Shown here: piece after piece, positions 12,182 through 44,495 of the stretch
How the letters are laid out: every line of letters starts with the position of its first letter
Position numbering within the stretch: position 1 is the stretch's first letter
Source: Marsupella aquatica
Taxonomy: Eukaryota; Plantae; Marchantiophyta
NCBI GenBank assembly: GCA_973895155.1
Contig: OZ316891.1
Coordinates: 14,911,037-14,975,036 of the forward strand
Reading direction: 5' to 3'
Length of the DNA: 64,000 bases
Program-made: the position numbers and the translations under genes
Notes under the pieces: model-generated
What the model was told of the DNA's origin: nothing
The model's input: the letters and a program-made list of their open reading frames with translations, nothing else
Database searches by the model: none

Positions 12182-12188
12182 CTTTGTG

Positions 12189-12959
12189 ATGGCAACGGAG
12201 GAGATTGCCCATCTCAAGGCTTTGCTTGAGAAAATCTTAGTTGTGGCTGAAAACTCTGCAATTGAGATTACCACACTCAGCAAGGAGGTGACGGAGCTAA
12301 AGAATGAGAATGTCAAGCAAAAGAGGTTGATTAGTGATCTTCGATCTCAAACTCAGGAGAATGGTAAGCAACTCTCATTGCTTGCATCATGTTTTGGAGA
12401 CATGGAGAAGAGTATGTGCCCAGAGAAATCAGTGATACATGAGGCTGTAGGGGAGATTGAGGAGAAGCTCAAAACCTTTGCACAGGCTGCAAAACAATCA
12501 CATATGGAATTTGTCCAAGCCAAGGAGGAGGAGAGAAGAGCACTAGAGGAAGAACACAAGAACCAGCATGCAAGAGTCAGCAACTGCAAAATATCAGGCC
12601 TTGTTGAGGAGAAGAAGGAAGACACCAAGAAGGTAGCAATTTCATTCTTCCAATCTCAGATGAAAGTGCATGACCCTATCATTTTGCAAGCATATAGGAT
12701 TGGGCAAAAGAAGGGGGACCTTCCACATCCAATCTTGGTGAAGTTTGCAGCTGAATCCGAGAAAGCTAGAGTGATGGCTAATAGGAGCATGCTTAAAGGG
12801 CTAAGGATTTGGTTGGATGATGATCTGACTCCCACACAAGTCCAAGCAAGGAAAATTGAGCTTGAGAAGGTGAGGGTAGCCAAAGACCAAGGATTGGTAG
12901 CCTACTTGCGCAATGGACAAGCTGTTGTTACCAATAAGAAGAGAGTTGTTTCTAAATGA
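12189..12959 (+). CDS. LINE ORF1 (coiled coil + RRM-like nucleic-acid-binding domain)
   Basis: Open frame from ATG 12189; heptad-rich N-terminus, then ISGLVEE...AYRIG...PILVKF...IWLDDDLT, typical of LINE ORF1 proteins. Confidence 0.85.
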   Translation: MATEEIAHLKALLEKILVVAENSAIEITTLSKEVTELKNENVKQKRLISDLRSQTQENGKQLSLLASCFGDMEKSMCPEKSVIHEAVGEIEEKLKTFAQAAKQSHMEFVQAKEEERRALEEEHKNQHARVSNCKISGLVEEKKEDTKKVAISFFQSQMKVHDPIILQAYRIGQKKGDLPHPILVKFAAESEKARVMANRSMLKGLRIWLDDDLTPTQVQARKIELEKVRVAKDQGLVAYLRNGQAVVTNKKRVVSK

Positions 12960-12980
12960 TGGATTGGGACCTTGAGAGTC

Positions 12981-15900: not shown

Positions 15901-16175
15901 AACAAGGGAGATGGAAGGATATTGACAGGAAAAAGAGGGTTTGTCAACTATGTGATAGCTCTAGTATAGAGAATGAATATCATGTATTCATTGCTTGCAA
16001 GTTTTATGAGGGGGTTAGGATGGCATCTCAAATCTTGGTGAAAGATTTGTATGCATTGTTTGGTCTGCCCCCTCAGCAACTTGGAAGATATATCTTTGCA
16101 GTGGATAGGGAAAGGAGAATAGGTTTGGAAAATCTTTCAGGGCTCTCTAGGTTCATAGTTTCTTTGAGGACATAG
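12981..16175 (+). pseudogene. LINE ORF2 (APE endonuclease + reverse transcriptase) with a single in-frame stop at 15420-15422
   Basis: APE motifs WNVSG, TETW, GDFNAR, TIDY, SSHLP; RT motifs QAGFR, VDFSKAFD, GVIQGCPLSPTLF, FADD, YKYLG; C-terminal CQLC..ENEYHVFIAC. The frame resumes after the TGA. Confidence 0.92.
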
Positions 16176-18731: not shown

Positions 18732-21700
18732 TGCGGCCGTTGCTTGAAGGGATTTAAGAAGGAATTCCAAGAAGTCTGAAGTAAACTCAGCTGGTTGTCG
18801 TCACAGATGTCCCCCACCAGCGACCTGAACAAAATCAAAATCCTTGCACTGCTGTTAGCATATATACATCAAAACAAGGGGATGTCTTCCAAATTTGACG
18901 TATTTTCCATCAATACAGCTCCTCACAACCTTGATGACTCACTTGCAACGAATCGATGGCAATGAAGAACGATTCATTGCCTACTGTACACGAACAGCAA
19001 TTTAGCCTCTAGTAGTAGTTCACGATGAATACGCAAAGTACTGGAGACAAGTACATGAAACTCGAGGCAAGACCCACGAAGGTTAGTGTAGTTTAAATTC
19101 CCATTCCCAACGGACAGCAAAAGCCATTCAAATTCCTATACCCTTAAGAAGATGAATCCATGTACGCTTAGAGCAATTGACAAATATTTGATGTCTATCT
19201 TCTAATGCGAGCTTAGCGTTTCCATCGCATCAGGTTACCTAGAAATTTATTGTTGCATTGCCCCACATTGCACCCCTCTTTGATTTTCCATTCGATGTGC
19301 TGGACAGAGGAAGAATTTAACGTCTTACCTCTTCCGACGATAGAATTTCACACGCTACCGTTTCTCTATTTCGCGAACAAATACTCTGTATGTAAGCGTG
19401 ATTGATAAGGTGAAAGTTAAAGTGGAGCTGTCTGTAGATTATTGATGGTATAGTTCTAGCCACATTATCATTGGTTTTCTTCGTATGCAGAAGACCAGTC
19501 CATCTCTCTCGCTCCTGCCTCCTTACCTCCACCCGAGCAGTGCAGAATCCACAGGTGTAAGATATCTGAGCAATTCTTTCACTACCTAGTAGGGCTCTCC
19601 ATACGGACGGACAATTGTCCAATGAGAACTCACCTGTAGACAGCTCGAGGACTCAGAAGCAGGTTTCTTGCCAGGCGAGTTCGTGGTTGAAGTCACACCT
19701 TTGCGACAGTTTTTCCCATCCGAGCTACGCAATTCTGAATTGCCATCCATAAACTGCGACACAGTAGCCTCGCGATTAGAAATTCTACAGTCTCACACGT
19801 ACCCGCCGGGTCATAAACAGTATTGCAAGAAACACTGTATGGCCCACAGAAGTATCGTAGTCCACTTTACTTGGGAACTAATGTACTGTACCAAGGCTTT
19901 GATGGAAAGAAACGAGCTACAGTAATTTGCTGTCGACGATACCAGATTGCGATTTCTGTAAATATATTCAAGCAGCAAACAAGACACAACCTACGCACCT
20001 CTTCTCGTGACATGGAAGTTTGTTTGCCAATTTGAGTAGTTCAGCTCACATTGCACCGGCAGGCTAGATTGGCTTACGGGCAGAAATAATACAGAGACCT
20101 ATAACTTGATGGAGTTGGGAGTCGTTCGCCTAGTTATTCTGGTCGCTCGGCTTCTTTTTCTGCTCGGTGTCGCAAAATAACTGGAGAAGCGATGGACGAA
20201 GCTTGACGTCGGATGATGATAAGCTCGGCCTAGAGAACACATGCACGAACGCCATTCACTGGAGGGCAAGCCTGCTGCTGTAGTAACTGCAGGAGTGGAA
20301 GGAAGCTAGGCGAGCACGGTGAATGAGACCGCCATCAAATGCGTCCAGCATGATAAGTACGGAGTGGTTGGTGCTGCGGCAGGTGCGGTCCGTCCTCGCT
20401 TAACCGCACGGCACAGCCTGCGCTCTCTCTCTGCTAAGCGGTTCCTTTCCAGAGAGGAGGGATCAGGATCGCGGTGCGTAGTTTGTTGGGCTGTTACAAA
20501 GGAGATAGCACAAGTTTGTTTACGGCATTTAGATTACGCTCAAGTCTTAAGACTTCGCTTCTCGGATCTTTAGTAAACATTTCGCAGTCTGTCTTGCTTG
20601 TGCCTTCTTGCCCGTGCTGCAACCTTCGTCCCTTCTCTCTTTCACTGGAAGGTAGCATCAAATCAGTACTTCATTAATTCATTGATCGGTAGAAATTGTC
20701 TATCAGTTGCCAGGTTCACTAGCAGGGGAAACAATCAATTCGAAGGCAAACTTTTGCATAGTTTCCAGTCTAAGTAAGCCTTAATTGCAACTGACTTGTC
20801 TTTCTTCATATCTTACATTTCTATCTGTTGCCTGAGTTGTGTCTGTCTAGCCTTTTGAAACTCTTCGTTCATCCCCTCTGGAGCTGCTTGTGCGCATCTA
20901 TTCAAGAGAAATTGGCTTAACTTTTGAAACGGAAATTATCGCTCTTCTTCTGCTGGGGAGGTGTAGTAAGTTTGTTCAAATCAGTAGTTAAAACTCATTA
21001 GTTGATTCCTTGGCTGCATTTCATCGCCGTTTGTACGCTCCATAAGTCGATCTTTGGAACCGTGGACAATCATGTACTTCATATCAAACTTATTTCTTCT
21101 GCCAAGCTCGTACGCTGATTCAGCTTTTTCCGTGGTCGATTTGTAGCCCTGCCCGTAGGAATGACGGTCAGGAGGCAATCAATGGCAAAGAAGTGGAGCT
21201 CGCTTCTCTTTTCACCAGTCAATCTTTGCTGAATTTGACAGTACCTCCCGTGGTCTTTGTTGCATTAGCTCTCTGTATCTGACGAAGACTGTTTTCCATT
21301 TTCTCAGGAGACTTAAGAGGTTCCTCTAGAGGGCAGTGGCCACTAATCTTCCCCTCCACCCCTCTACCTGCTCGATCTCAGCTTCTCCTTAGAATTGGTC
21401 GATCGAACGAACTGTCTCTGTATGGAGGACAGACACATATGAATGACTTCCTCTTGGCTACTACGATTGGCAGAAACGAAGGGAAAAGGAATAGCTATGT
21501 TTTTCTTGTACTGGTGGTATCACAAACATGTCACTCAAACGAAGGATAAAAAAGGAGAATGGCGATGGAGCTCATGAGCTGACCATTTGCATGTCCCAAG
21601 AGGCTCTCCAATGAGTTCGTTTGGAATGACACCACTACAAGAAAAGCACAGCCGTTCCCAACACTTGGTTATTTCCTGGAGAGCACAGCTTGCTTGGGAA

Positions 21701-26453: not shown

Positions 26454-29400
26454 ATGAGTGATTCAGAGGAGATTTTCGAAGACGTGGAACTTGAAGCACG
26501 AGGATCACCGCAGCGGTTTGTGGTGGAGAGAGAGGAGCAGGAGGAAGAGCACGTGACACCGATACCATCACCTGTGCGACGAGTGGTGGAGGAAGCAGTT
26601 CTTCTACCGGAGCTCACGGTAGTGCCAAAGAAGAAGATGGATACGTTCAAGCTTGGGAGACCCAAGTATGAAGTGACAAAGTATGATGGGCGCTCTGACT
26701 ACTTGCTTTGGGAGAAGCAGGTGAAGGGAGTGCTCTATGCGTCAGGGATGGGCCAACTATTGAGCCCTCGTGAAGACGATGTTGATGAGAAACAATGGGA
26801 TCGCATGCAGGAGCAGGGAGTGTGGTGTGTTACACTCTATCTCATGCCTCCCATCATCAAGCAGTTGGGTGCACATAAGGATTGCATGTCCTTGTTTGCG
26901 GAATTGCAGAGCAAGTATCACCGCAAGTAGTTGTCAAACCGGCTCTATACTTCCTACAAACTGATGAGTTTCAAGATGAAGAAATCTGGTACGAAGTTGT
27001 AGGACCATGTGGATGTTTTCAACGACATGGTCATTGACTTGGAAAACCTTGGGGAGACTTTGAATGATGAGACGAAGGCTCTGCAGCTTCTCAGTTCATT
27101 GCCTCCATCTTACCAATCCCTATCATGGATGTTGTTGTATCGTGATAGGGATACCATTTCATACAATGACGTGGTAAGTTCTCTGCTTAGTGATGATCTT
27201 CAGCAAAAGATGCACATCACGTCACAACCTTCATCCTCTGGTGCTGCCCTCATTGTTAACCATGGGAGGAGTATGCAGCGACCAACTGGGGAGCGTAGAA
27301 CCCAGTTTAGATCTAAATCCAGATCTAAGTCCAGAGGTAAATCCCCTCAGAGAAGGCAGGTGACATGTTGGAAGTGCAACCAGGTTGGACACTTCAAGCG
27401 AGACTGTAAGGGAAAGGTAGCTAAATCTTCATCGACAAATGTGGCTAGGGCTGATGGAGATGCTGATTTACTCAATGATGAGTATGTATTATGAAGCCAA
27501 GGGTATGCTCTATGCACGTTATCTAGGAGAGCAAATGATGTGTGGATTCTTGATTGTGCTTGCTCTTTTCACATTTGTTACATTCGAGAGTTTTTCAGTT
27601 CTTACTCTGTTTCAAACGCTTCAGTTCTGATGGGAAATGATCACTTCTGTCAAATTGAGGGTATTGGGTCTATGAAGATTCAAATGTTTGATGACACTAT
27701 GCGCACAGTGTCCGGAGTCAAGTATGTACTTGGCATGCGTAAGAATCTGATTTCACTTGGTGTGTTGGATTCAAATGGTCATCAATGGAGCATTATTGAT
27801 GGTGAACTTCAAGTCAGGTCGGGAGAGACAATGATCTTGAAGGGGAGCAGACAGAAGAATTTGTATGTGTTGTAGGGCAATACTGTATATGGAGAGGCCA
27901 ATGTAACCAAGTCTCACGAGGAGATGACTAATCTGTGGCATTCACGGCTAGGCCACATGAGTGAGAAGGGTTTGGCTATCTTACGGAAGAATGGACTCAT
28001 TTCTAATTTGCAATCTTGTAAATTAGAGTTCTGTGAGCATTGCATTCTTGGAAAGCAGCATCGTCGTGCTTTTGGTGTTGGAACTCATCGTTCCAAAGCG
28101 GTTCTTGAGTACATACATAGTGACGTGTGGGGTCCATCCCCGACTCCCTCACACTCTGGAAATTTGTACTATGTATCATTTATTGACGATTACTCAAGAT
28201 TTGTGTGGATTTATTTCATGACGCATAAGTCTGATGTCTTATCCATTTTTAAGAAGTGGAAGGCCCAGATGGAGAATCAGACTAGAAACACGGTTAAGTA
28301 TTTGGATACAAGGGTGAAGAGTCTGAGGTCTGACAACGGTGGGGAGTACACTTCAGTGGAATTTCAAGAGTATTCTTCAGAACAGGGGATAACTTGCCAT
28401 CTCACCACAGTTTATACTCCACAGCAGAATGGTGTCGCTGAGAGGCTTAATCATACACTGTTGGAGCGGTCACAGAGTATGTTGAGCCAATCAGGTTTAC
28501 CACAAGAATTTTGGGCAGAGGAAGTGATGCATATGCTCTCACACCAAAGCAAAATAGGACCAAGTTGGATCCTACCTCCAAGAAATATGTTTTTCTTGGG
28601 TACCAGAGTGGTGTGAAAGCCTATAGGCTATGGGATCCTATTGCCTGTAAGCTCGTTGTCAGTAGGGATGTTTCCTTCAATGAATCTAGATTATTGAAGG
28701 AGGGGGAGAATACTCAGATCTCCCGTACTGACAAAGGAAAATCTCCTATCCTGGATCTCGTTGAGGGGGAGATTGGTCATGAGGTCCATGACCGGAGAGA
28801 AGAAGTTGCTCCAAATATGGAGTTGGTTCCTGTGCCAGAGGAACCAGAGGAGTTTGTTGATGCTGGTGAACAGCAAGTGGATGCTACTGAGCTTCAGATT
28901 GTACCAGCACACATGGATCAACCAGAGTCATCGGCTAGAAGAACATCTGGTCGCACTGTACGCGCTCCACCAAGGTATGGACAGTGGGTTGATTCATCTC
29001 AATTGCAAGAGGAGGTTTTGTTACTGACGATGAGGGTGATGGGTTGATTTTGGAAGAAGGGGAACCTTCTTCATTTCATGAGGCAAGTGCTTCTAAGGAG
29101 AAGCAGGAGTGGACTGCAACAATGCAAACGGAGATGCAGTCACTGAAGTACAACAAAACTTGGGAGCTTGTCAAGCTGCCTGAGGGACAGCAAGTGGTGG
29201 ACAACAAGTGGATATACAAGCTAAAGGATCAATTCACGGGAGGTGGATCGAAGGTCTACAAGGCTAGGTTGGTAGCCAAGGGATTCACACAGAAAAAAAA
29301 TGTGTGGATTACAATGAGGTCTTCTCACCAGTTGTTAAGTACTCAACAATACGGCTATTGTGTGTGCTTGTTGTAATGTTTGATCTGTTGCTAGATCAGA

Positions 29401-30530
29401 TGGATGTTGTCACAGCCTTCCTCTATGGCACCTTGGAAGAGGTGATCTTCATGAGACAGCCGCTAGGTTTTGTGAAGAGAGGGCAAGAGGATTTGGTTTG
29501 TAGATTGCTGAGATCCTTGTACGAGTTGAAGCAGTCACCAAGACAGTGGAATAAGCGGTTTGATGATTGGATTCGTGCACAAGGCTTTCACAGGAGTGTG
29601 TTTGACCCATGTGTGTATCTGAAACCGGTGAAGAATGTTGTCTTTGGGTTCATTGTTTTAGTACTTTATGTGGATGACATGCTTATTGCGGCCAAGGACA
29701 GGTCTGAGATTGTTAAGCTCAAGGCACTACTAAGTGCAGAGTTTAAGATGAAGAACTTAGGGCCAGCTAAGAGGATTTTGGGTATGGAGATCACTAGGGA
29801 CTTGGAGGCTGGCAAGCTATGGTTGACGCAGAGCAGTTATGCGATGAAGGTAATCGCAAGGTTCAACATGGGGGATAGCAAGCCAGTAAGTACCCCGTTG
29901 GCTCCACACTTCAAGTTGTCATCAGCATTCTGTCCTACGGATGAGACAGAGAAGGGGCTGATGTCAAAGGTTTCTTATGACAAGACAGTGGGGAGTCTCA
30001 TGTATTTGATGACCTACACTAGACCTGATCTTGCCATGGCTATGGGCAAGGTGAGTAGGTACATGTCGAATCGATGCTGACTATGCACAGGATCTGGATC
30101 GAAGGAGGTCAACAACAGGTTATGTGTTCACACTAGGAGGTGGATGCATAAGTTGGAGATCTACTCTACAGAAGTGTATTGCCAGTCTACTACAGAAGCG
30201 GAGTATGTTGCAGCAACGGAAGCATCAAAGGAAGCAATTTGGTTGGATAGACTTATCACTAAGATGGGATTGCCACAGGGGAATGTGAAGCTCCATTGTG
30301 ATAGTGAGAGTGCACTCCACCTTGCTGTGAACCAGGTGATGGATAGCAGAGTGAAGCACATCGACGTCAGGTACCATTTTATCAGGCAGGCTGTGTCTGA
30401 TAATATGTTTGAGCTAGTCAAGATTGACGGTAAATTCAACCCGGTTGACGCATTTACCAAAGTGATTCCTTTGGAGAGTTTTTCTAGACACCGTGATGCG
30501 TTGCAGGTTTTGCAATTGCCTCACAAGTAG
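26454..30530 (+). pseudogene. Copia gag-pol polyprotein, disrupted
   Basis: Same motifs as copy 1 (CWKC Zn knuckle, WILDC, RSDNGGEY, YTPQQNGVAER, YVDD, KHIDVRYH), with stops, frameshifts and deletions near 28520 and 30071. Confidence 0.95.
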
Positions 30531-30720
30531 GGTTACTTAATATTTGTGTAGATACTGAGATATGCTCTTGCTCATTCCTTGTATAGGCTACGGCTTAGTT
30601 CTGGTCTACTCTCGTATAAAGAGGGAAAAACCCTTTTGGTTTTTCTTTCTAGAACTTCCCGCTGAGCAATCATATTGGTAGCAGTCTTTACCCTCTCCTA
30701 GACTAGAGTCAAGGGGGAGA

Positions 30721-30818
30721 TTGTTAGGATTTACTCTTAGGTCTAGAGTTACGATTGTACCATAGTTAATTGTTGGGATTTACTCTTAGGTCTAGAGTTA
30801 CGATTGTACCATAGTTAA
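30721..30818 (+). repeat. 49-bp tandem duplication of the start of the Copia-2 3' LTR
   Basis: 30721-30769 and 30770-30818 differ by one base. Confidence 0.92.
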
Positions 30819-31982
30819 GGCTAATCTTAGTCGCTGACATGGTTAGGTTAGTCATGTTGTGCACACTCTATAAGCAAGCAGTGTTTGCTTGGAGAGATGG
30901 AACTCAGGCTCATTCTTACGGAGCTAGTTGAGAGATAGAGAGAGCTTGTGCTGTGGATGCCTGGTATGGCCGGTGGGCCTAGAGTGCAGTAAAGCTCTTG
31001 TGTGTTCCTGTGGACATAGCCTCATGATCGAGGAGGTGAACCACGTATCTCTCTGTGTCGACTATTGTGCGTTGGATGATTCACGGGCTTGCCGTTGCGA
31101 TCGTCGTTGATACTTAACAGACAGTAGATGGCTTGATGCATATAATGAGGGTGCAGTGTGCTAAACCCCTTTAATGCACACTTTAAGGCAGCTAGGGAAA
31201 CCCAACTAATACAAATCATTTAACTTATGTTTACTTAGGTACAGTAAAATGGGCATGTTAGGGGTTTCTGCTAAATAAGAGGTTTAGGGTGCACTCCCAC
31301 CCACACTTAGGATTAGAATAACTGGGAGTAAAGTATCATGATTTTTAGAAAATTAGCTTTACAAAACTTGACTATTCCCTAAGTCTTCCAACTGTATTTT
31401 TGGCCTAACTTGTTTCCTACCCCCCAGATCAAGTTTTTTGGTCCTTTTGATAGGGTGAAAAGTTTCAAACAGTTATTGTCAATTCTGTCAGTCAGAATTT
31501 ACTGCTTGATAGCTCTCATGCCTATCCTCCTTTGATACTTCCCACCATAGCAATGGCCTCCAAGAGAAAATTCAGCTGATCATCTGAATTTCTTTTGCTT
31601 GCTTGGAGGAGGTTTTCTGCCGTGACAGGAAACAGTAACAGGAAACAGGAAATGGTAACAGTAAAATAAGTGAGGAAATTTACACAATATTTGCGACATC
31701 CATCAATAAAAAGGGTGTATAAAAATGCCGAGTATATTAGTAGCGCCTGGCGCTACTTTAAAATGTGTGTTACATGGTAGCAAAAACACAAAGCCCGATG
31801 ACAATACAAAATCTTAAGAGATACCATGAGCAGAAAAATGGCTAAAGAATTGGGATGTAGTAAGCTTGCAAGAAAACATGGAGAACCGAGACTACAACCT
31901 AACACCTTCAATCTCCGATGGCGGTAGCGCCAGGCGCTACTATCGCAAAAGTCTTTAAGAAGACTCCATCTTTCAAACAATC

Positions 31983-32453
31983 TCAGGACGTCGATGAATG
32001 ACACTCATCATCGACTCCCGCATTGAAGCGATCCTCGTCTCGGCGAAATCCATCCTCTCGCTCAACAAAAAAACGCAGTCCTAGAAGGCGACTCCTCAGC
32101 CTGCAATTTGGAATGTTGGAGTCAGAAAATCCAACTCGCCCGGTCCATTGTTGAATGCCCCTAAAAAACGCCGTCCATCCAACCCTATAGACATCGGAAG
32201 GATCCAGATCGTGAATAGAGAACCGTTCTCTAAAAGACCGGGGAGGAGACGAATCAGGGCATGATTCTGGTTTTGCTCGAAGGCTTATCCCCTCGTCCAA
32301 GGCCAGCCATAGTCGATTCCTCTCCATTGAGGTGACAGGGTGAGGAGTCTCATCAATCGGGACCTCTGAGGCAAGCAAATCAATTGAAGCTTTGCCTTCC
32401 AACTTTGTGGGGCCGGAAGTTCTCTCACACAAGACTTGCTTTCCTTTCTCCAT
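31983..32453 (-). CDS. Putative accessory ORF of the MULE (156 aa, unknown function)
   Basis: ATG-initiated ORF inside the element, on the same strand as the ParB-MTase gene; no recognisable domain. Confidence 0.35.
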   Translation of the reverse strand: MEKGKQVLCERTSGPTKLEGKASIDLLASEVPIDETPHPVTSMERNRLWLALDEGISLRAKPESCPDSSPPRSFRERFSIHDLDPSDVYRVGWTAFFRGIQQWTGRVGFSDSNIPNCRLRSRLLGLRFFVEREDGFRRDEDRFNAGVDDECHSSTS

Positions 32454-32855
32454 GGTCTCTGGATCAATGTCTATGCCGCGCTAAACGCAAAAGAGCTCCT
32501 GGAAATCCTCGAACATCGGCGATGTCAAACGGAGAGGGTGTAAAATAGAAGAGGGTGTCGAAATACCTACCGTTGCGAAGGAATTCAACCTAGGGAAACA
32601 GGTATGTATGGTAGTCAAGGTCATTAAGGATTTTCATCGTACATCAGTACATGTACTTGCAGTTTGGAAAACATTACACTACACTTCACATCAGAAAAAG
32701 ATATGCGGAAGCTAATACCTTTCCCACTTTGTATTTATATAAAATTGATGCGTACAATAAGTAGCGCCTGACGCTACTATTTTGGAGGAGGTAATATGTT
32801 TTAAAATCATGAATATATAACTAATCTAATTTAAACTAACCTAATCCAATGTAAT

Positions 32856-33168
32856 CTAATCTCCAGATTCCGACTCACTACTCTCCGATCTATCCGTACT
32901 CTCTGCTTCATCGTCGATAAATTCATTTCGTTCCATATCATCGACAAATGGATGACGGATGAACTTTCTATCCAAACCACGTCTCAATCGCAAGCCCTTA
33001 TTCTCCCAGGTCAGGGTTCTTCTACTCTCTTCTTTGCGAGCGGCATACTCTGCGTATGAAGGCAATACAAATGGTTTCTCAAGGGTAATTAGGACTTTGC
33101 TTGAAAATTTCCTTCACAGATTGAACCTCTCGCGAAGATTCCACTCTGACCTACGAGTCAGTTGAAAC
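32856..33168 (-). pseudogene. Possible small accessory ORF or exon with an acidic C-terminus
   Basis: Frame reads FQLTRRSEWNLRERFNL*RKFSSK...LPSYAEY...EFIDDEAESTDRSESSESESGD, with one internal TGA. Confidence 0.3.
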
Positions 33169-33258
33169 ACTAAGTACACTTCGAGAGATTCCAGTAATTC
33201 AAGTATGCAAGATAAAAAGAAAACGGAAAGTTAAGTAATGTAAAGGAGCTTACGGGCA

Positions 33259-36200
33259 TTACTCAGAAGAATCTGAATCTTCCGTTTCTCCTTCTGAATT
33301 CCCCTCATCCTTTTTCTCTCCTTCTTTCTGGACATCAATCCCGGCCTCTTCATCAGCTACATCGTCTTCCTCTTCTTCGGAATCAAAATTCAGAACAGAT
33401 CAAACTTTATCTTTCACTTTTTTCTCCATGTCTTTGCTCGGACCAGCCTCACTCAATTCTTTCGGGAGGAGCAAGTCAGTGTATGTCCTCTCTGCAATAG
33501 AAACAAATTCCTTGCGATTCTCAATCCCAAGGATGAAACGGCCACAAAAATCACCAGCCACAAATGTACTTCCTGACCCAACCGTCCAGTCCATAATAAT
33601 ATCTCCCGGACGAGAAATTAACTCCAGGACAGACTGCATGAAGCCAACCGGTAGTCGTGCATTCCCTGCAAATGCAGCTTCTTGAACAGGATCCTTCTTT
33701 AGAGTCTGCAGCCCAATGAGGTTTGTGATTGAAGGGTCCTCGGTTGAAGACAAAGGCTTGAACTTTGAATATTTGGGGACCCTAACCTTCGATGTAACTC
33801 GACTAAAGATATCAAGTCTTAAGGTGAAAACCTGGAAAATAAACAGTATTCAATATGAGATTTGGTAACATATATTAATAGCGTCTGGCGCTACCCAAAA
33901 GACCCTGTGTACACGAGGACATTTACATGTGAACATCAAACATGAAATGAGATCTATTAATAGCGCCAAGCGCTAGCAAATGATTCTCTTGATTCAAAAG
34001 GACAATTACCTAACAATCGCTTTTGGCCATGTACATTGGGGCACCCATAACAACGTTGAGCGTTTTGAGGCACTGGAACTTTTGGGAATCTTGGCTGGCC
34101 GAAATTACTTGGGAGATCTGGTCATACTCCCCAGTGTGCAAAACTGCTAACAACCCATCATCGGCAAGAAATGGGTCCATTGCCCGAAAGAAAGAGCCAA
34201 CCATTCGGTGATCCGGTACATTCCACTTTGGCGATTTTTGGTGAAGCAAAGAAGGTCGTAGACCTGTCGGTAGGTAGACAAAACCCGCATCCACCCCAAA
34301 AGATCTCAACTTGCCTCCCCTAACTACCCCTTTCTCCCGGAGACCAAGTGTCACTAAGTCTTTTCCCCACTTCTCGACATTCGTCACCCACCTGGGTTTA
34401 GTCTCTTTTGTAAAAATAGAATCAAAAAAGTCCATTAGACTGGACTCAACAAACATATGACGGCAAACTTTGGACTTGAATTGACCAACTTCTCGTTGGA
34501 TGCCAGTACATGCATACGAATCTCTAGAAGAAGAACCGAGATCAAGAGTTTTCTTCTTCTTTTTTCTGGTGCTTGTGGCATCAACCGGACGATCAATGTT
34601 GGTATTTGCAGGAGGAGTCTGCTCTTGGGTAGCATCGGCAGCCTCAGTGTTTGCTTCAGATTGATCAGGGGTAATGGTCGTCTTTGCATCTTGAGTTTCT
34701 TCTCCCTCTGATTTCCTACCCCCTGTAGAGAATCGAAAAGGTAAGAACACTGGGAAAACTATAACAGCGCCCGGCGCTAGCCAAACATTTACTTTCTAAA
34801 TTCTCGTGTATGAGTATACATTTAATAGTTTAAAGTAGCGCTTGGCGCTAACCAAAATCAATGCAAACAACTAAGTGAATTTCAGAGGAAAAGATCAAGA
34901 AGAATTGCAAAAAGTCATATAACTTACGTTTTCTTCCGGATCTCGTGGACGGGCTATTCAATCCTGTATCAACTTTTACTTTTGCGCAAGGTCTTCGGCT
35001 CCTGTCAACATGTAAGACTTCAGTCTCACATATTTTTTGAAGCTCCACTGCAGAAGCTTCAACGTCTCCCACCAATCCTTCCTTCATCTCAGACAACCAT
35101 TTCCGAGGAACTAAAGATTTGGACAATTTCAAAAAGGCATCTTTCTCAGATTCATCAAAAGGTGTATCCCACTTATCAGTATCGAGGTACTAGGGACAGT
35201 TTGTTCGCTCCCAAACAGAAATGTCACGTGGAGGATTGGCTCTTTCTGCAGGATACATCGAGTAAACCTCACTGAAATCATCCCCATCCATGACCGACCA
35301 CCTCTGGAATGCAGGAGGATAAGCCCAAAAATATTCAGGAGAATTGCTCTCCATGGACAAGAAGAACCAATAAAGGTATCTCTTTGCCCGCTTCTGGTTT
35401 CGGGAAGAAAAATCTTCTTTCTCCCCGTACTTTGACGCCCACATTGTGTTAAAAAACTTTGCCTTGACTGTATCTCCATAACTTTTGAAATCATTGCAAA
35501 TCGTCTGCACTAAAGCATCAAAAGTTTCTACACCTCCTGTGACAAGTCGTTCCGGAGGCATGACAGATTGAACTTGTCTGAGAGCAGTCTGCATCATCCC
35601 CATTGAAATTCCTTCGATCCAACTCCACATGTGCAAAGTGTGACACCATTGTTTAACTGGTTCGTCATTCACACTCGGCGGATGGAAAAATTGCTTGCGA
35701 AGTTCGGGCGTGCAATGCGCCACAAGAAGAGTGGAATGCAACTTTGGGTCCAAAGCTGAGACGGCAGTAAAGAGACGAGAACGATCCATCGTGCAAACCA
35801 CAGCGTCTACTTTCCGTTCTCACTTGTTTTTCTCTGTCAGCGTGTACATTTCCGCACATGTTGACAGAAAATCTTCGAATTTGGGGCTAAGGAGTGGAGT
35901 GATCTTTGAGGTCTTCACGCTCCATTCTTTTGTGGCCTCCTTCATCATTGTCGCATGACACTTGGTGACCTCCTCCTTTGACCACGGCCTCCCTTGAGTG
36001 TTTGCAGTCGCCATGTCCAATTTGAATTGCATAGAGTATGACTTGATCTTGTTCTCGCACAAGATGTACACAAGGGCCTCCAAAGGCATCTTCTTCATAT
36101 ACCAAGAGCCTTTCCTTGTCTTTGCGCGAATTGCCTCAAAGCATTTGAAGTTTCTGGCGTCAATTATCGTCTTGTAATAATCAAGGTCATGGGACAGAAT

Positions 36201-37056
36201 TTGACTAATTCTGTCAGCATCGAGGATCCACGACGGTTCTACAACGGCTTGCCCCAATCTGTATACAACCATTTGTTAGCGCCAGACGCTAACCAAAATC
36301 CCACAATTGAAAATTTGTCCAAATCAAAGAAAATGACCAAACTTACTGATTGACAGTGTGCATGGCGGCTTCAATCTCAATAAGAGAACCTCGATCTCCC
36401 TTGAACACAGTGCATAGCACACAAGGGTGGTACTTGATATTTTCGGGGTTCTCTTTTATTACCTGCGACCAGGAATATAGACGATGATTCCCGTTGAACA
36501 CACAAAACATCTTATCTTTTAAGACAAGGAAATCTGGATCTGCTTCACAGTCCGCTTCAAATTTCTCATTCTGGACAGTCCAGACAGCATCCAAACTCTT
36601 GCGGATTTTGGGGGTACAAAATTGGATGACGCCTTTAGAAACAGCGGGTTGCACGTAGAATCGCATCGCAATGGAGGAGTTGTAACCGGAACTGCGAAAT
36701 GATTCTTTTAGCTTCTCGATTGAAGCGCTCTCCTTCTGGAGAGTCCAAACAACTTCCATATTGACCAGGCGACAAAGCGGTATACGCGGAGGGTCCTTGG
36801 GCTCTCCTCTGAAATTAGTGTCGAGCGACATTGCATGTTTGGCAATCACATCTCCCATCGCTAGCGACCCTTCACACCCGTCTTCCATGATGAAATCACT
36901 CGAATTCTCCATGACACCTCGTCTCTGCGTTGGGAAAGTCTGCGCAGAGTTCCGAAGAGAATGCGATGTAGTCGAGCGAGTAACGCGTCGTGTGTAAATA
37001 GAACCAGCGAACGATGTCTCCGATGTTTGAGAATTACCTGGGGAAGTGTTGTCCAT
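33259..37056 (-). pseudogene. ParB/Srx-like domain + beta-class N4C/N6A DNA methyltransferase-like fusion; ~1108 aa in 4 exons (37056-36347, 36258-34928, 34722-34010, 33831-33259), with 4 premature stops
   Basis: All three GT-AG introns preserve frame (3327 nt in total). ParB-like FCVFNGNHRLYSW at ~36470-36505. MTase motif IV-like VDAGFVYLPTG..W..FFRAMDPFLADDGLLAV precedes motif X/I PVGFMQSVLELISRPGDIIMDWTVGSGSTFVAG..GRFILGIE, which is the beta-class order. In-frame stops at 35820, 35190, 34010 and 33400; acidic tail. Confidence 0.82.
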
Positions 37057-37484
37057 CTCGGGATAAAGAGTCTTTGGCCCTAAAATTTGGAGAGTTCTCA
37101 GCCACTCACAAAGGCCTGCAACGTACTGTTGCAACCAAATAGATACGACCCACGTCCGAAACAGCCAGTATGGAGACCGTTTTCCTGCAACAGAATGACA
37201 CGACAGCAAGATCAGATTTGTCAAATTGACCTTTGACAGGAAAAAGATCCCAAAAAGGCCGACAGCTGACTTAAATATGAATGTTCCATGATGAAAAATA
37301 TCAGGTAATCGAGCAATCGAACCAAAGAGAAAGGGACAGTTGGCATATAGTACTGACGTGGCTACTCAAATGTAACAAAAAATCTCATAATTAACATTCA
37401 TTCAAGAGGTAAAAATGGTCACACAGGCATAAAGTTACCATTACAAATATCCGTTGGACAGACAACTCGGAGGATAAACATTAA

Positions 37485-37912
37485 TAGCGCCCGGCGCTAT
37501 CATAAACATCACTCCTTCTAGACCAAAAAGTACACATATTTTCTTTTGAGTCGACCCTGAAATACTAGTAATCCACTGAGTTTCAATAATAGCGCCCGAC
37601 GCTATTATTGATTGTTGTCTAACATTCATAAAATCTTTCAAATGTTCCATCATATACATCAGAATCTCTTGTTTTTTCATTTTCCGCAATAATAGCGCCA
37701 GGCGCTATCAATGGAGAGTATCAAACAAAGTCATGTTTTGCATAATTCTGATTTTAAATTTCACGCTTTTGAACGATGATCTGGTAGGGTTTTTGCTAGC
37801 GCTTGGCGCTATTATTCTCCGTTGTGAAAATGTCCGTTAAATTAACAGAAACATTTTGTTTTCAACGGTCATCCGTCGCCATTTATCTCAAATTTATCCG
37901 TTGAGTTAACGG
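37485..37912. promoter_or_regulatory. Putative bidirectional promoter region: four phased palindromes plus an AACGG/CCGTT cluster
   Basis: Palindrome spacings of 105, 103 and 104 bp; five AACGG/CCGTT motifs in 37819-37912; lies between ATG 37056 (-) and ATG 38029 (+). Confidence 0.5.
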
Positions 37913-38028
37913 TAAAGTTCTAAATATTTTTTGCGTTTGAGTGTGGTTTCTTCGTTCTTGATGATTTACTTGAGGGAAATAATAAACCGAGGCTGGAAAC
38001 ACCCTTACCATTTTTTCATTCTGTCAGA

Positions 38029-41000
38029 ATGTCACGGGTTATTAGGGTAAAATGTCCTGAAACGGGAGACGTGATTAGCGTTCCTGTGACTTACGGAGAT
38101 GGTAATCAGCGTGTGAGCGAAGATTATCTTTGCGGAAGGTTTGATGTTAGGAGGAAAGACATTGAAAGCTTAGGGACAGCTGCCAAGGGGGTAGTGAATT
38201 CTTTTTACATTTTTGGTCAAAAATGGTGGGAACTGCACTGCGGTGTCGAGTACACGCTTTTCCTCCGAGGAAAAGTAGTGAAACTAGAGACGGTGGATGC
38301 ACCAACAGAGGTCATTGATCTCACGTCTGATGGCGATGACTCTTCCCCTGTCTCTCAATTGCCGATTGACATTAGGAACATCAAGCGTGAAGAGTGTCAG
38401 TTGTTGAAGAATTCATTTCCAATGCATCAACGTAGTACCTCAACGGAAGACAGTGGAGGTGACAAGCTTCTTAAATCTCCTTCTCTTGCTATAGTTTACA
38501 GAAGGAGCGCATTTGACGCCCTTCTGAAATTGACTGGTCAAAGTGAGCTATCTCGATTTGTACAATCAGAAACTTTCAAGCACGAGCAAGTAGAATTTCT
38601 TCCCAAAACTTACAACGGCAATGTCATATTTGAGCCTCGGGGGTCTCACTATATAGGGACCTCCCCATCGCCTGCGACGTTTTGAAGCCTAGGACCCCCT
38701 AAAATGTAAGAATTTTTAAAAAAAAATTAACCCCTATAAAGTTGGAATATTCTTGGAATATTCTAAAAAATGGATTAAAAAGACCCTAATGTTCTTATAA
38801 GTCTCAAAATTGAATTTAAAAGACCCTATTGTTCTTCTACAAAAATTCTTAAGTCTTCCCTTAGAACCAATAAAATGACCCTATCCTTCGTCGCACGTGA
38901 TATGCCATTTTTGTGGAAGTGAAACCCCCGAGATTTGAGCTTCCGCCTGTCAATTGTGTGGGTTCAAAGGGGAAGCATCTCCTTAACATGGACCGTTTGA
39001 AGGATTGCTATCTCTGGACTTGAATTATTCCTACTTCTGCAAATGTTTTGCCGAAGAAGATGTGGGGGTTTGGTAAAGTCAGTTGTAGCGGATCACTTGA
39101 ATGCCAAAACAAATCATGCAAGTTTTATACCAAAACAAATGGTAGGAATTGTAGCTCCTGGGAAGGGACCCCCAAGTTGGGAGGCCAACATTGTCCAGGA
39201 AAGTTGATTGATTCAGGAGGGATTGTTTGTCGGTATTGTCTTCAACTTCCATTCTGTTTGGACTCCTGTTCCACAAAAATGTTTTACATGTACCCACAAG
39301 TTCTCCTGGATTTGGCGACAACGCAACATATGTCACACCTTGCAGTACATATGGGTGTCCATAACCATCCGTGTCGAAAGGTCTGGTCTAGAAGTTCGAA
39401 GATGATAGCGGTCGAAGAGATTCGGAAAGAGCATTTGAAAAATGCGATCACTGGATCTCTTAAGGATGCACTAGATGAATCTATCGATGACATCTCGAAG
39501 ATGGAAGAGAGTGAGATTTGGCAATCACTTATGCTTGTTTCGACTCCGCAGAAGTTCTCTGCCTTGTTTAAGAGTGTCCGGAAAGATCAGGCCGGGCGAG
39601 GAGACCTCGAATATCTGGTTCGGATGCAGAAGAATGTCAGGTTCCCGTTTGTTCAAAGGTATCTACTTCCAGGGCAAGGCTCTAAGGAGGACCGAGCTCA
39701 TATTTTCAAAATGATGATCAAAGGGCATGGATCCGGAGTCGATTTGTTGCGACAGATGAAAAAGGGTGGACCCCTCGAAGGTGCGTGGGTGAGTTTTGAT
39801 GTCATGAAACGAATGTCAAAAGATTGGAGTACTTTTAGCGCCCATGTTTATGACCATAACTATCGAGCTTTATGTACAATATTTACGTGTGAGCTGAAAG
39901 CGGAGGACACTGAATCTCTCGAGAAAGCATGGAGATTAATGATTGAGGTCGCTTTAGAAAATGGGGTAGATGATGTTCAAATTCATGGATTCATGGCTGA
40001 TAATGCTCAGTCAGGGAGGCGTGCGGTCAGAAACGTTTTCTTTGGGGGCCATCCAAATCCGGAGAAAGAGAGATCGGATGCTTTTCATTTTTACCAATCT
40101 TTGCACCGCCATTCTATCGAAGGAGTGCTTGAAGACAAACGTTTTGAGCATCGCCTCCTCTGGGATAAGCTCAGAAATGCATCAACGTTTGTCAAAGCTT
40201 ACAGGATTTCCCGAGAAATTGATTTGTGGTGGAGATCTGGCATGGCAATTGCATTCCCGGGAAGCTTCGGATGCTGCAGGGATGGATCTCTTGGTGGGTT
40301 GTAAGATGGCAACAATGGGGAAATTTTATTCGACTTGTAAGTATCACCATTTTTGACTTATTGAATAGACACTTCCATACTAGCGCCTGACGCTATTATT
40401 AACACCTTCTTTTTCTTGATTCTCTCAGCGTTTTGGTCAGCGCCTGGCGCTACCTTTAATTGATACATATTGTTGAAGAATATCAACTTATCTTCCAAAA
40501 GTAGATTTTGAGATTTGACAAACTCTGGCCGTCCTGCAGAGCAAAAGTGCACAAGAAGGAGGGATGATTCCTAATTGCACTGGATCTGAGGCAGTTCATG
40601 GTATCATGAAAGCTTGGCAAGGGAAGAAAACTATCGGATTATTTGAGGGTTGTAAAATTGACCACAATCGTGCAATCTCTCAAATTGCTGCTTATACTGC
40701 CTATTGGGATGGGTTACATAGAGGAACAGGTCCTACGGTATTTGAACTAGCTTTCCGTTCAGCGGACCTGGCTGGATCCCCTCAATTGTTCGAAGAGGCT
40801 TCTAATTTGCTACTAGCTAATGCGGCTGAATTTGATTTGGAGAGGAGTACTCCATTGAACGGTGATTTTGTAACCAAATCTATCAAAAGAAAAGGTCCAG
40901 CGATAGGGAATGTCTCGGCACAAGACTCCCATCGTCATGACACCATTCTGATAACAACACCGAATACACGGGGTTTGAAACGGAGAAATCTGAACTCGGC

Positions 41001-42051
41001 TCAGTTTTCTCATATTCCACCAAGTGTTCCTGAGACACCGATCGATTTGACTGGGAGTGAGGACCTGAGTGACTTGCCGGACGCATCTGCTTCTGGTCCA
41101 GGTGAAGAATTTTCCACATTACCAGAAGTCTCTCAAATGGACCAAACTCCAGTCCTCCCTGACACGTCGCTTTTGGAGTCGGACGTTGAACCTGGGTCTT
41201 GGCATCTTCGTCGAATTTCAAGACTTGGGCCTGGTCCTCAGTGTAACGGGACATTGTCAAGTAGATGCGATCGTGATGAGTGTCGAAACCGGATTAAGAA
41301 GGTTGGATATCCTTCTAATGCTGGAGTGATCGAAATTGTTGCGAAGGGACATCGCGTGTTCAGGAGTGAACCCATGCCGAGTTCGTGTGGTTTTGCCCCA
41401 ACGGCAGTTGTTGGAAAAGCCGCCCACATCGAGGCATCACTAACCTGCCTCCTTATCATTTTCCTTGCCAGTACTAACAGGAACACATTTGTCAAACTTG
41501 GAGTTATGTTTCCTGGAAGAACAGGGTGTTGCAATCTTCAGACAACACCACCAAAGCATGCCTGCCAACCCTACGCCTTTTGACTTGAGAATCAATATTG
41601 ATGTTTTTCCTGAGAAGATCAATATGGCACAAATCAACATCCGTGTTCAAACTAGGAATGGGCGCCCAATGAACCCCAGATCAAATCTTACTCAGGAATA
41701 CCATAGAAGGATCGAATCTGCTGCGAAGGAAACAATGACTCTTATCACAGAATTGGATGTTTCCTCGGGGAACTCATATGGGAAACGATTACTATCCAAA
41801 CACACGCTCATCTAAGGACGGCAAACACTTATTGGGTGCAGATTTGCGTATTCCCTTGTTGCTCTTGTGAGGACTTCTTTCGCTGACATTCTCGAGGAAG
41901 ACCTTTCATGCCTTGTAAACATTTGTACTGGGTTTACAAAACAATCTTCAAGCTTGATCCATTGGATTCGGTCTTACCAAGCCAGCCAATTTTGATTGTT
42001 GGAGAACTCCAGTACATCATAGGAAGGAGGAATTCGCATGGTTTAGAATAA
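38029..42051 (+). pseudogene. MULE-family transposase (GCM/WRKY-like Zn domain, DDE core, SWIM finger), disrupted by a MITE, stops and frameshifts; intron 40337-40539
   Basis: CSGSLECQNKSC...CRYC...C...HMGVHNHP; D1 in WVSFDV; D2 in GFMADNAQ..AVRNVF..DAFH (CxxH position); WISWWVVRW; E in CTGSEAVHGIMK; SWIM CSCEDF...PCKHLYWV at ~41856-41935. Removing the MITE restores the frame (IFELPPV). Confidence 0.85.
38636..38932. mobile_element. 297-bp MITE with 8-bp TSD, inserted in the transposase gene
   Basis: TSD ATTTGAGC at 38628-38635 and 38933-38940; TIR CTCGGGGGTCTCACT/AGTGAAACCCCCGAG (14/15 match). Confidence 0.93.
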
Positions 42052-42439
42052 TTCTTTTCAGTCTACTAGACGTTGAACGGGCATTTTTGGGTTGCCGTTT
42101 TTAACGGTAACAAATATTTTGTTAGCGGTCGGCGCTAGTAAAAGGCTGGCATTTTGTAATGTTGTTTTATCTGGCAACAAGTATTGGAGTCTCAAATCTT
42201 CCCAAATATCTTGAGTTTTGCTAGTGTTCATTTGGGAGAGATGACTCCAAGCAAGCATCAAGACATTTGATAGCTTTGTTGGGACCAATTGAAAACTCTG
42301 AAAACTGCAATCTCTACAGTGGAAAGTGCACATGTCATCGATGGCATACATGGTCCTTTCCATCAATGGCCCTTTGTAGAGGTTCTTCAGAATTTGATTT
42401 CCAGCCAATCTATTACTATAATACCCTATACTGCCAAAA

Positions 42440-44495
42440 ATGTCCATCAACAAATCCCGGATCATTCCTCTCTATCTCAATGGGGGAATTTATCCCGACT
42501 GGCTCAATGATACGGGCTGCCGAATCTCGGAGACAGGTGAAATCACTGAATACCTGGGATGCCCAATTGGGTACAACATCCGCCCTTCTCACAAAAACAA
42601 CTTCCTTCTAGGGAAAGTGAGAAAGCGATTGTTCCACTGGAACAATAGATGTCTTACTGTGGCTGGAAGGGCAATCCTACTGAAACATGTTCTGAGAGTG
42701 ATCACGACTTATCACCTCATGATACTTGAACTCCAAACAGCTGGATATCTTGACCTTGAAAAACTTTGTAGACGATTCTTGTGGGGAACCTCTCTTGAAA
42801 GGGGGCACAAAAAGGCTCTCATAGCCTGGCAGGAGATTGCAACACCTAAAGGAAGCGGAGACTAGGAATCTTACCTTTCAAAGACCAGGCCCAGGCACTG
42901 AAGATGAGACACGTCTCCAAGCTGATCAGTGGGGACAGTAGAGAGTGGGTGACCATTGGAAACGACATCATCAAAAAGGCACTGAAACGAGGAGCGAGAA
43001 TAAAAGAGAAGCGGTGGTGGACACCCACTGACACAATTTTACTAAGCACTGAGCTATGTGTGAAAGGCTCTCCCACTCTGAAGACGCTGCTCAAAGGGTG
43101 GTTTGAAAACAACCAGCGCCTGAAATTCAACTTTGGTTCTGGTAAGCTGTCATCCCATTTATCTATTGAGCACACCCTCCTACTGTATTCTAGGAATAAC
43201 CAGGTTAGTGACCAGGAAGGTACTTTGCTCAGGAGATACCTTTCATCCAGGGGGATCCGTAAGGTGATTGACCTGTGGTCGCAACAACACGGTTGGAGCG
43301 AAGGTGAAGCCATTAACAACAGTGAGAGTAAGGAGCAATAGACCTAACGGCCTTGAAGCCTTCACTAGATTCTACGACCTGCTTAAACAGTCTACGGGAC
43401 TGGGTGAACATAACCTGTCGGAAAGCACTGAATGGCAATGGGATTGGAAGGCGAAGGACAGAGGTTGGACTTTCCCCAACAAAACCTGGGTTAACTGCTC
43501 CCTTCCCCTTTCACAAGATGTTACCAAACTTAACCGGAGATGGGGGGGACAGAATTGCACATTGGACTGATGGAGACTATACTGGAAGCAACTTTATGGT
43601 GGCATGACTTTACCGAAGGTCAGGTTCTTCATTTGGCGGCTAATCAACCACTGCTTCTTCACAAATGGGAGAGGCAGCTATTGGAAGGTCTGCAATGGAA
43701 TGTGCAACAGATGCAAATTGGGATTTGAAAATACTGACCACCTTTTCTTTAGCTGCAGCAAAGTTTGCAAGAGGTGGAGAGAAATACAATGTTTGATGCA
43801 GGGTTCTTTTACCTTCTCCATAGGGTACACGTCACTCTTTGACACTATCCATAACGCTTTTCAGAATCAAAAAAGGAAATCGGGTACTATGGTTCTCCTG
43901 ATGGAACTTTGTAATAGCATCTGGAAAGAGCGAAATGCTGCCACTTATTCTCACTTCTTAGGTCGTCTCCCCGGATGGTGACACTTTGGTACACTGAAGC
44001 TTCCTTGAAGGCTATGATTGACCTGTGTCACTCCCCGAGGAAACACAGACAAATTCAGGAAGCCCTTGAACAGGTGCAGAATGTTCTTAAACCTTGGGAA
44101 CAGACTGACAGCCCGGTTTCACTCAACCCCACCAATGATGATGATGAAGCATGCAACATAACAGCCAATTGCAGGCTAGGAAAGACTCAAACTTGTGAAG
44201 GTCCTTGGGCACATGAAGTGGACTGAACATATTTGGAGTGGGCCTATTAGCCAGAGTGAAGTTGGTAGATTTGAGATTACTCAGGACACTAGGAGAAAAT
44301 ATCAGAATTATCCCTATAGGGGAATGAGTAGATGGGACTTGGATACGGACACCCTGAGGAGGATGCTCCGGGACCCTTGGTTGGACTAGATTTCTGGCGT
44401 TTTTCTGGCTGTTTGTCGCCGCTGGCCCCGACTTGTGCTTTCTGGGTGGTCTTTGCTCCCGCGGTGCTTTTTCCCATGTGTGGGGGAAAAAAAAC
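42440..44495 (+). mobile_element. 5'-truncated, frameshifted L1-clade LINE (RT C-terminus + zf-RVT)
   Basis: EYLGCPIG, RLFHWNNRCLTVAGRAILLKHVL, RRFLWG, IAWQEIATPK..GLGI, PKVRFFIWR, CNRC..ENTDHLFFSC; A-rich tail at ~44487. Confidence 0.88.

Follow-up and report, generated by a model that had tools for sequence, protein, structure and literature searches.

A palindrome dispersed through the non-coding DNA of a liverwort Mutator-type element as a putative binding site for an element-encoded ParB-fold protein

Transposon self-recognition and de-silencing have been tested in VANDAL and Spm/AtMu1 elements, and a ParB-type accessory gene has so far been a hypothesis drawn from red algae. In VANDAL21, VANC acts against methylation from family-specific motifs in introns and spacers (Hosaka et al. 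2017, PMC5735166). In red-algal Plavaka elements (EnSpm/CACTA), the ParB-like accessory gene PAG3 lies beside inverted-repeat arrays and self-binding has been proposed; PAG3 homologues are also reported in Mutator elements of Chondrus (Petroll et al., bioRxiv 10.1101/2025.02.11.637652). Here we describe a Mutator-type element within a 64,000-nucleotide stretch of DNA from the liverwort Marsupella aquatica (contig OZ316891.1; the whole stretch is referred to below as the window). The element carries 15 copies of a palindrome that is very likely bound by a protein that the element itself encodes. The idea of self-binding is already in print for red-algal PAG3, and what is presented here is a land-plant variant of it. 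No description of the present land-plant element came up in a literature search; related families may be recorded in Repbase or in the supplementary files of Petroll et al., which lay outside that search.

The element has two head-to-head genes, one for a putative DDE transposase with a GCM domain (right gene) and one for a predicted ParB/KorB-fold protein fused to a methyltransferase-like domain (left gene; Table 1). The window was scanned for TAGCGCCNGGCGCTA with up to two mismatches, and 100 shuffles served as the background. The scan returned 15 matches, spanning positions 31741 to 42137, compared with a shuffle mean of 0.05 and a maximum of 1, and every copy reported in a preliminary description of this DNA was recovered. 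Relaxing the scan to three mismatches added no match (chance expectation, 0.56), and the other 53 kb of the window contain no copy. The consensus TAGCG-CCNGG-CGCTA given in that description needs some qualification: the part AGCG-N5-CGCTA is constant in all 15 copies, but the full consensus is kept in only four, with one mismatch in ten copies and two mismatches in one. Viral contigs contained 85 stretches with the exact motif; among the loci listed, every contig but one had a single copy, and these stretches were taken as background.

The sites avoid coding DNA. Exon borders were drawn from reading frames and relatives, as were all splices, and the motif was not used. None of the 15 sites lies in the 6,873 bp of exons, whereas non-coding DNA offers 31.9% of the possible starts (p ~3.6e-8, or 2.6e-10 when both distal open reading frames [ORFs] on the left are counted as coding). 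The element has 3,348 non-coding bases, in which 0.02 copies are expected from base composition. Seven sites lie in the four supported introns (two, two, and one in the left gene and two in the transposase gene), four lie between the genes, three lie on the left, and one lies at the right end, exactly the distribution that had been described. Sites are thus dispersed through all the non-coding DNA of the element; 13 of the 15 are internal, at up to ~5 kb from an end. This placement resembles that in VANDAL21, likewise a Mutator-like element, in which a motif that varies by family occupies introns and intergenic and terminal non-coding DNA. The VANC motif differs in being asymmetric, uniformly oriented, and spread by tandem repeats, whereas the site described here is a spaced dyad without tandem context, and the accessory protein is ParB-fold rather than VANC (PMC5735166).

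The four intergenic sites are spaced at 105, 103, and 104 bp, or about ten helical turns, and their spacers show no direct repetition. Helical phasing of the sites is not claimed, because the other spacings (57, 71, 82, and 184) are mixed. On the minus strand at 37186-37330, upstream of the inferred start of the left gene, there is a pyrimidine-rich, AG acceptor-like stretch. This sequence suggests an intron in the 5' untranslated region of the left gene; if such an intron is real, some of the sites classed as intergenic may be intronic.

The symmetry of the site runs beyond its core. Among the 30 half-sites, a purine is present at -2 in 30, A or T at -4 in 29, and T at -3 in 20, giving an extended half-site of TWWTRN-TAGCG. 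The extension previously pointed out at 37584-37610 (CAATAATAGCG..CGCTATTATTG) is present. Left and right flanks pair at only 6 to 8 of the 15 sites per offset, and in transcript orientation the mismatches include C-A and T-T besides G-U, with G-U not favored. Because the flanks pair poorly and the mismatches show no preference for G-U, the symmetry is read as DNA sequence recognition rather than as a stem. A tandem-repeat origin of the sites in this family was rejected, because none of the tandem repeats in the window covers a site and the spacers are not directly repeated. One spacer pair was weakly alike in inverted orientation (9/300 shuffles), which is not significant over six comparisons.

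The mutations within the sites are also unevenly distributed. None of the 60 CpG positions of the motif is changed, versus 10 of 60 central positions (Fisher p 0.0013). Nine of the ten central changes are C to T on one or the other strand, and variation within the site is greatest at its central CCNGG. Between 31760 and 33300, this copy of the element has lost at least 13 of 160 CpG cytosines, 6 of 108 CHG cytosines, and 1 of 418 CHH cytosines. Since the CpG and CHG losses far exceed the CHH losses, the copy appears once to have been methylated. Against this surrounding decay (at least 8%), the absence of loss at the 60 motif CpG positions has a p of ~0.006. The persistence of the CpGs, as judged from a partial variant list for one stretch, fits shielding of the sites after the death of the copy.

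Removing the three introns of the left gene gives a single frame of 1,061 codons with four internal stops. Exons 2 to 4 match the full-length protein P0172 of the liverwort Riccia sorocarpa in order, exon 2 is ~25% identical to Riccia proteins (best E 8e-26), and the similarity of relatives stops at the donors of three of the four supported introns. For exon 1, 152 relatives were found at E<=0.001. Its nearest Atlas clusters bear DUF3723 (score 0.96; 47% and 92% of members carry the family) and ParB_N. DUF3723 is also mobile-element cargo in fungal Starships, which belong to another class of element (Gluck-Thaler et al. 2022, PMC9156397), but the window protein has no Pfam DUF3723 match, nor is DUF3723 among the families listed for 54 relatives. 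The family pattern in exon 1 is VR...DGNHR...N, two residues of which are replaced by W and N in this copy. R56 is conserved in 49 of 54 relatives, GNHR144 in 49 to 53 of 54, and N188 in at least 90%; R56 is lost in this copy. In our own mapping these residues occur in the same order as R54, R95, and N127 of MxParB.

The fold of this protein was evaluated with a predicted model of the Riccia relative P0050 (mean predicted local distance difference test score [pLDDT] 68.4, and much higher over most of 131-640). Among 48,161 chains, KorB ranked first (Z 7.4, root-mean-square deviation [rmsd] 4.7, 137 residues aligned, model 151-427), and the top five were all ParB/Srx folds. When 114 Foldseek candidates were re-aligned to the model, ParB and Noc gave Z scores of 8.2 to 8.6 (rmsd 5.1 to 5.7, 179 to 199 residues), compared with no more than 5.8 for sulfiredoxin and no more than 2.9 for rows outside the ParB/Srx fold. 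The alignments extend beyond the N-terminal domain (KorB 52-192 on model 151-427 and ParB 42-221 on 146-484; rmsd 4.7 to 5.7, with long inserts). The front domain of the left gene is predicted to have a ParB/KorB-like fold, and the model suggests that the DNA-binding part lies in the helical region that follows it. When the PDB was searched with sequence profiles, no match with a useful E value was returned for the family of either gene.

Comparable systems are KorB of RK2 with its operator OB, and ParB/Noc with parS. KorB is the best fold match of the P0050 model, and OB, a palindromic operator, is carried by a mobile element and exerts its effect at a distance. OB (TTTTAGCGGCTAAAA) has an A/T-TAGC arm in common with the palindrome, a likeness of four bases that may be due to chance, and the centers between the TAGC arms measure 7 bp here and 1 bp in OB. 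The gene described here further differs in being eukaryotic and spliced, in its fused methyltransferase-like domain, and in that no ParA partner was seen (McLean et al. 2025, PMC11790492).

The back domain of the left gene matches PF01555 (E 7.7e-9, positions 163-220), and phmmer links it to a DpnA-like enzyme and to CcrM. Motif I, DWTVGSGST, aligns with DPFMGSGTT of the DpnA-like enzyme, and this S-adenosylmethionine (SAM)-binding motif follows motif IV, a permuted order. Beta-class N6A/N4C DNA methyltransferases have the catalytic motif [DNSH]PP[YFW] (PMC4738411). At this place the window protein and the 63%-identical P0175 have YLPTG, and five further relatives have DLPTG, DMPSG, or DMPTG (Riccia) or DVPFG (one fern protein). 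The domain is thus probably catalytically dead, and because [DNSH]PP[YFW] is missing at the family level, the left-gene protein probably does not methylate the site. Searches with phmmer from P0173 and an extended protein search with exon 3 returned nothing. The UniRef label 'Trimethylguanosine synthase' on the Riccia sorocarpa proteins P0170, P0172, and P0173, which are ParB-fold/methyltransferase-like, looks wrong.

Proteins of similar architecture have been described elsewhere. Fusions of ParB with PF01555 are common in phages, and these ParB-CTPase and N6_N4 methyltransferase fusions have the same domain order, ParB fold and then PF01555. The liverwort protein differs in its long helical middle, replaced catalytic motif, introns, and transposon setting (Kaljevic et al. 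2025, PMC12704722). As described, PAG3 is likewise an accessory gene of a eukaryotic DNA transposon, with a ParB-like front, a back resembling a nucleic acid-modifying enzyme, and inverted repeats nearby. The element described here is instead from a land plant and has a GCM-Mutator transposase, and the back domain of its accessory protein is a probably dead PF01555-type domain rather than the 2-oxoglutarate oxygenase of PAG3. In the red-algal elements PF01555 is located on a separate gene, PAG2, rather than fused to the ParB fold, and the PAG3 repeats form a tandem array beside the gene rather than single islands in introns, spacer, and ends (bioRxiv 10.1101/2025.02.11.637652).

Loci with a related transposase were available on 32 contigs, which are mostly short and coding. 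The N5 site is absent from all 32, and three of them carry different palindromes. The closest locus, L001, carries TAG[C/T]GC-NG-GCGCTA three times, all in the orthologous transposase intron, with a center one base shorter than that of the window site. These sister sites have a purine at -2 in 6/6 halves and TATT upstream of each. The middle sister palindrome of L001 lies inside a perfect inverted repeat with 29-bp arms (1103-1304), which hints that the L001 sites multiply by local inverted duplication. The distant loci L010 and L025 repeat CTCGG-NN-CCGAG (three and two exact copies) past the first exon of a head-to-head ORF. In both (L010 22-780, L025 285-1076) this motif occurs in repeated units, and the lysine/arginine-rich first exon points away from the transposase; the remainder of that gene was not found on these contigs. 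Repeated units are thus seen in L010 and L025, whereas the motif of the window element is not multiplied by tandem repeats in one orientation as in VANDAL. Most of the other related loci showed no repeated long palindrome.

The dyad symmetry, the fixed purine of the half-site, the confinement to the element, the sister palindrome, the undecayed CpGs, and the predicted ParB/KorB-like fold all support the earlier proposal that the palindromes are sites for a dimeric, element-encoded protein. The binder is probably the ParB-fold protein. We cautiously favor the explanation that the palindromes are sites for the element's own ParB-fold dimer, through which the element would recognize its own copies and counter their silencing, the part played by VANC in VANDAL; with respect to purpose alone, anti-silencing is slightly preferred over self-repression or end pairing. 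The ParB-fold dimer would land on each dyad, with the helical domain of each subunit reading one half-site. The nucleotide-binding domain would then close a clamp that spreads from the site, perhaps like KorB from OB, and the dead methyltransferase domain could serve as a DNA- or methylcytosine-binding module. The outcome would be local anti-silencing, in which copies of the family are marked and likely shielded from host DNA methylation. Sites would accumulate wherever coding constraint permits, and introns would then simply be free space inside genes. Of these steps, sliding that depends on a nucleoside triphosphate is less likely than not. Doubtful, and reaching furthest, is the proposition of a land-plant, ParB/KorB-type, nucleotide-gated sliding clamp with private parS-like palindromes, spreading, and a dead methyltransferase domain set against host methylation, with site and protein co-diverging and the cassette present in several transposon superfamilies across eukaryotes. 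If true, a sliding clamp of the cytidine triphosphate (CTP) type on eukaryotic chromatin would be new.

Several observations weigh against recognition by the ParB-fold protein. Foldseek with the P0050 model gave no match at E<=0.001, Z scores of 7 to 8.6 are middling by the tool's own note, and the fold was seen in a relative only ~25 to 30% identical to the window protein. The hint of a helix-turn-helix in P0050 is limited to a Z score of 4.1 (model 305-432 versus a DeoR DNA-binding domain), and the position of the ParB hydrolysis residue E93 is N here. The fold does not in itself imply a clamp, since a phage ParB partner has no need of its nucleotide residues (PMC13229309). The ParB-fold gene was found in none of the 32 related loci, mostly short contigs. 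The decay rate around the sites was derived from the best-supported rows, which list 20 variants in a single 1.5-kb stretch. Finally, the transposase has a GCM-like DNA-binding domain of its own, and two sites lie symmetrically in the degenerate ends. The spread of the sites through the element, unlike the ends-only binding of the AtMu1 transposase, counts in favor of the ParB-fold protein. The element provides the PAG3-type hypothesis with a sharply defined site, a spacing variant in a sister family, a pattern of mutations that hints at protection from methylation, and a full-length-looking gene model, P0172, in the sequenced liverwort Riccia sorocarpa; together these make the hypothesis directly testable.

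Mutator/IS256 (Mutator-like element [MULE]) transposons have target-site duplications of 8 to 11 bp and terminal inverted repeats (TIRs) or non-TIR ends, and their transposases may carry a WRKY/GCM1-type zinc DNA-binding domain ahead of the catalytic core. The fold search for the right gene used a predicted model of the relative P0001 (53% identical; mean pLDDT 74.6). Its top match was ISCth4, an IS256/Mutator transposase (Foldseek E 2.5e-5; Z 8.1, rmsd 12.2, 162 residues aligned), and the GCM domain 1ODH matched model residues 122-314 (Foldseek probability 0.99, E 2.6e-3; Z 6.3, rmsd 4.3, 132 residues aligned). The GCM-like domain noted in the preliminary description was thus recovered by fold, and the model places the protein among RNase H-fold DDE transposases of the IS256/Mutator type with a GCM-like domain before the core. 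The search found 19 transposase relatives. FDV, MADN, and DAFH are conserved. A Pfam search gave no MULE match, and the viral contigs contained no transposase relative. The closest named relatives come from two liverworts, Calypogeia fissa and Riccia sorocarpa, and one fern, Adiantum nelumboides.

This GCM-like zinc domain is the leading alternative binder, and an unlikely one. It would pair the ends and activate the element's own copies, as TnpA does on the subterminal motifs of Spm, or as in AtMu1. Besides the match to 1ODH, this alternative can draw on the mirror placement of the outermost two sites in an element without good terminal repeats, and on L001, in which a related transposase is accompanied by a related site. 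The AtMu1 transposase recognizes a motif of its own, with hypomethylation as the result, but it and TnpA are described as binding termini only (bioRxiv 10.64898/2026.08.24.746577), whereas 13 of the 15 sites described here are internal. In addition, the pairing of a ParB-fold gene with inverted repeats recurs with another transposase superfamily, in PAG3 (bioRxiv 10.1101/2025.02.11.637652).

It is improbable that the sites are bound by a third product of the element, encoded by the distal ORFs between 31983 and 33150, or by a host transcription factor. The distal ORFs exist, most other copies have a sense codon in place of the internal stop of the 32856-33150 ORF (place 33116), and there is a weak likeness to the end of Riccia P0043; a small separate gene does the same job in VANDAL (PMC5735166). 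However, no relatives, fold, or usable Atlas match were found for the 31983-32589 ORF, and a host factor should have sites elsewhere, whereas the 53-kb flank has none and there are only two half-site-like spots outside the full sites. The sequence between the distal ORFs and the left gene (33151-33262) may be a fourth left-gene intron or the gap between the 3' end of the left gene and a third gene. Riccia P0172 ends directly after the methyltransferase domain. The earlier statement that every intron contains a palindrome holds for the four supported introns but not for this candidate.

Quite improbable is the possibility that the sites, for example their central CCNGG, are substrates of an active element methyltransferase producing N4-methylcytosine (4mC) or N6-methyladenine. 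The PF01555 domain does have a recognizable SAM-binding motif, and Marchantia has active 4mC enzymes of that class (bioRxiv 10.1101/2021.02.12.428880). Those enzymes keep TSPPY, whereas the catalytic motif is replaced in the window protein and its relatives (YLPTG, D(L/M)P(T/S)G, DVPFG), and the proposed substrate is the most variable part of the site. That the palindromes form hairpins in pre-mRNA, as splicing or silencing signals, is very improbable: seven sites are intronic and L001 has one inverted repeat with long arms, but eight are outside the supported introns, the stems have just 5 to 6 bp and the C-A and T-T mismatches already mentioned, the intronic sites lie anywhere from 18 to 148 nt from splice sites, and there is no Rfam match.

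Equally improbable is an origin of the copies as micro-insertions or footprints at TA sites, or a role of introns as mobile site carriers. TA does begin 13 of the 15 sites and end all 15, but none is found in 53 kb of repeat-rich flank, no empty-site skip of 13 bp is among the best-supported joints shown, the flanks beyond 6 bp are poorly alike (best pair 27/60 positions, mean 18.7), and the position of the transposase intron is shared with relatives, one of which has no site there. That position is common even to relatives at 29% identity and the L010 intron has no palindrome, so the intron is older than its sites. With over half of the sites also outside the supported introns, the suggestion that introns distribute the sites along the element was not sustained.

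Table 1. Features of the Mutator-type element (positions in the window)
Feature	Position	Strand	Remarks
Mutator-type element	31625..42200		Multicopy, ~10.5 kb; degenerate inverted ends
Palindrome 1	31741..31755		Left subterminal; mirror of copy 15
Palindrome 2	31925..31939		Just past stop of distal ORF
Distal ORF	31983..32589	-	Candidate for a third gene or a last exon; contains one internal stop
Palindrome 3	32762..32776		In non-coding gap separating two candidate coding pieces
Candidate exon or short gene	32856..33150	-	Weak likeness to end of Riccia P0043 (pairwise E 0.009)
Candidate intron	33151..33262	-	GT-AG, 112 nt; no palindrome; in-frame ORF beyond
Left gene, exon 4	33259..33831	-	Domain resembling beta-class N6/N4 methyltransferases, SAM-binding half with motif I; acidic tail; one internal stop
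Left gene, intron 3	33832..34009	-	GT-AG; palindromes at 33879 and 33961; relative P0175 ends at same donor
Left gene, exon 3	34010..34722	-	Linker, then first half of methyltransferase-like domain, with YLPTG in place of the catalytic motif
Left gene, intron 2	34723..34927	-	GT-AG; palindromes at 34765 and 34836
Left gene, exon 2	34928..36258	-	Helical region after ParB domain, with putative DNA-binding part; two internal stops
Left gene, intron 1	36259..36346	-	GT-AG; palindrome at 36277; match of many relatives ends at this donor
Left gene, exon 1	36347..37056	-	Predicted ParB/Srx-fold domain; start codon inferred
Four intergenic palindromes	37485, 37590, 37693, 37797 (37485..37811)		Between head-to-head genes
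Transposase exon 1	38029..40336	+	GCM-like zinc domain, RNase H-fold D..D core; miniature inverted-repeat transposable element (MITE), one stop, one frameshift
MITE	38628..38940		297 bp; short inverted ends; 8-bp target duplication; inside transposase exon 1; no palindrome
Transposase intron	40337..40504	+	GT-AG; acceptor uncertain (40501-40512); palindromes at 40381 and 40438
Transposase exon 2	40505..42051	+	Putative catalytic E; low-complexity linker; two frameshifts
Palindrome 15	42123..42137		Right subterminal; transversion at 42128 private to this copy

Coverage of the element was evaluated with contigs of four public runs (X1 to X4) from two studies, in which summed depth does not equal copy number. 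Many divergent versions cover the element, with 10 to 25 contigs at one site; near 31625 and between ~42190 and ~42370 they give way to flank contigs showing little or no difference. The left end is at ~31600-31625 and the right end is between 42137 and ~42370. The alignment of the inverted ends takes in both outermost sites, at mirror positions. A search for a target-site duplication gave only two 9-bp candidates with one mismatch, neither convincing, and the flanking LINE-like (long interspersed nuclear element-like) piece gave no fix on the ends. A short tandem repeat with a 13-bp period at the left end (31625-31672) is common to more abundant sequence, and other copies of the element extend outward with a G-rich end, unlike this copy.

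This copy is decayed: the left gene has four stops, and the transposase gene is interrupted by one stop, by frameshifts, and by the MITE. The second exon of the transposase gene ends in what we take to be a SWIM-like motif (CxC..CKH). The MITE is not in other copies of the element, which show a 305-bp skip at this place, and by the rule of its 8-bp target duplication it is presumably hAT-like. Contig depth summed over the MITE is far above that of the element, and the MITE family is probably very abundant.

The element lies between a Copia piece on one side and a LINE-like piece on the other. In all, the window holds two Copia-type retrotransposon relics (5552-8835 and 27003-31100), a LINE with endonuclease and reverse transcriptase (12078-16175), a further LINE-like fragment with zf-RVT (~42400-43980), and a piece of a helix-loop-helix gene (18018-18800).

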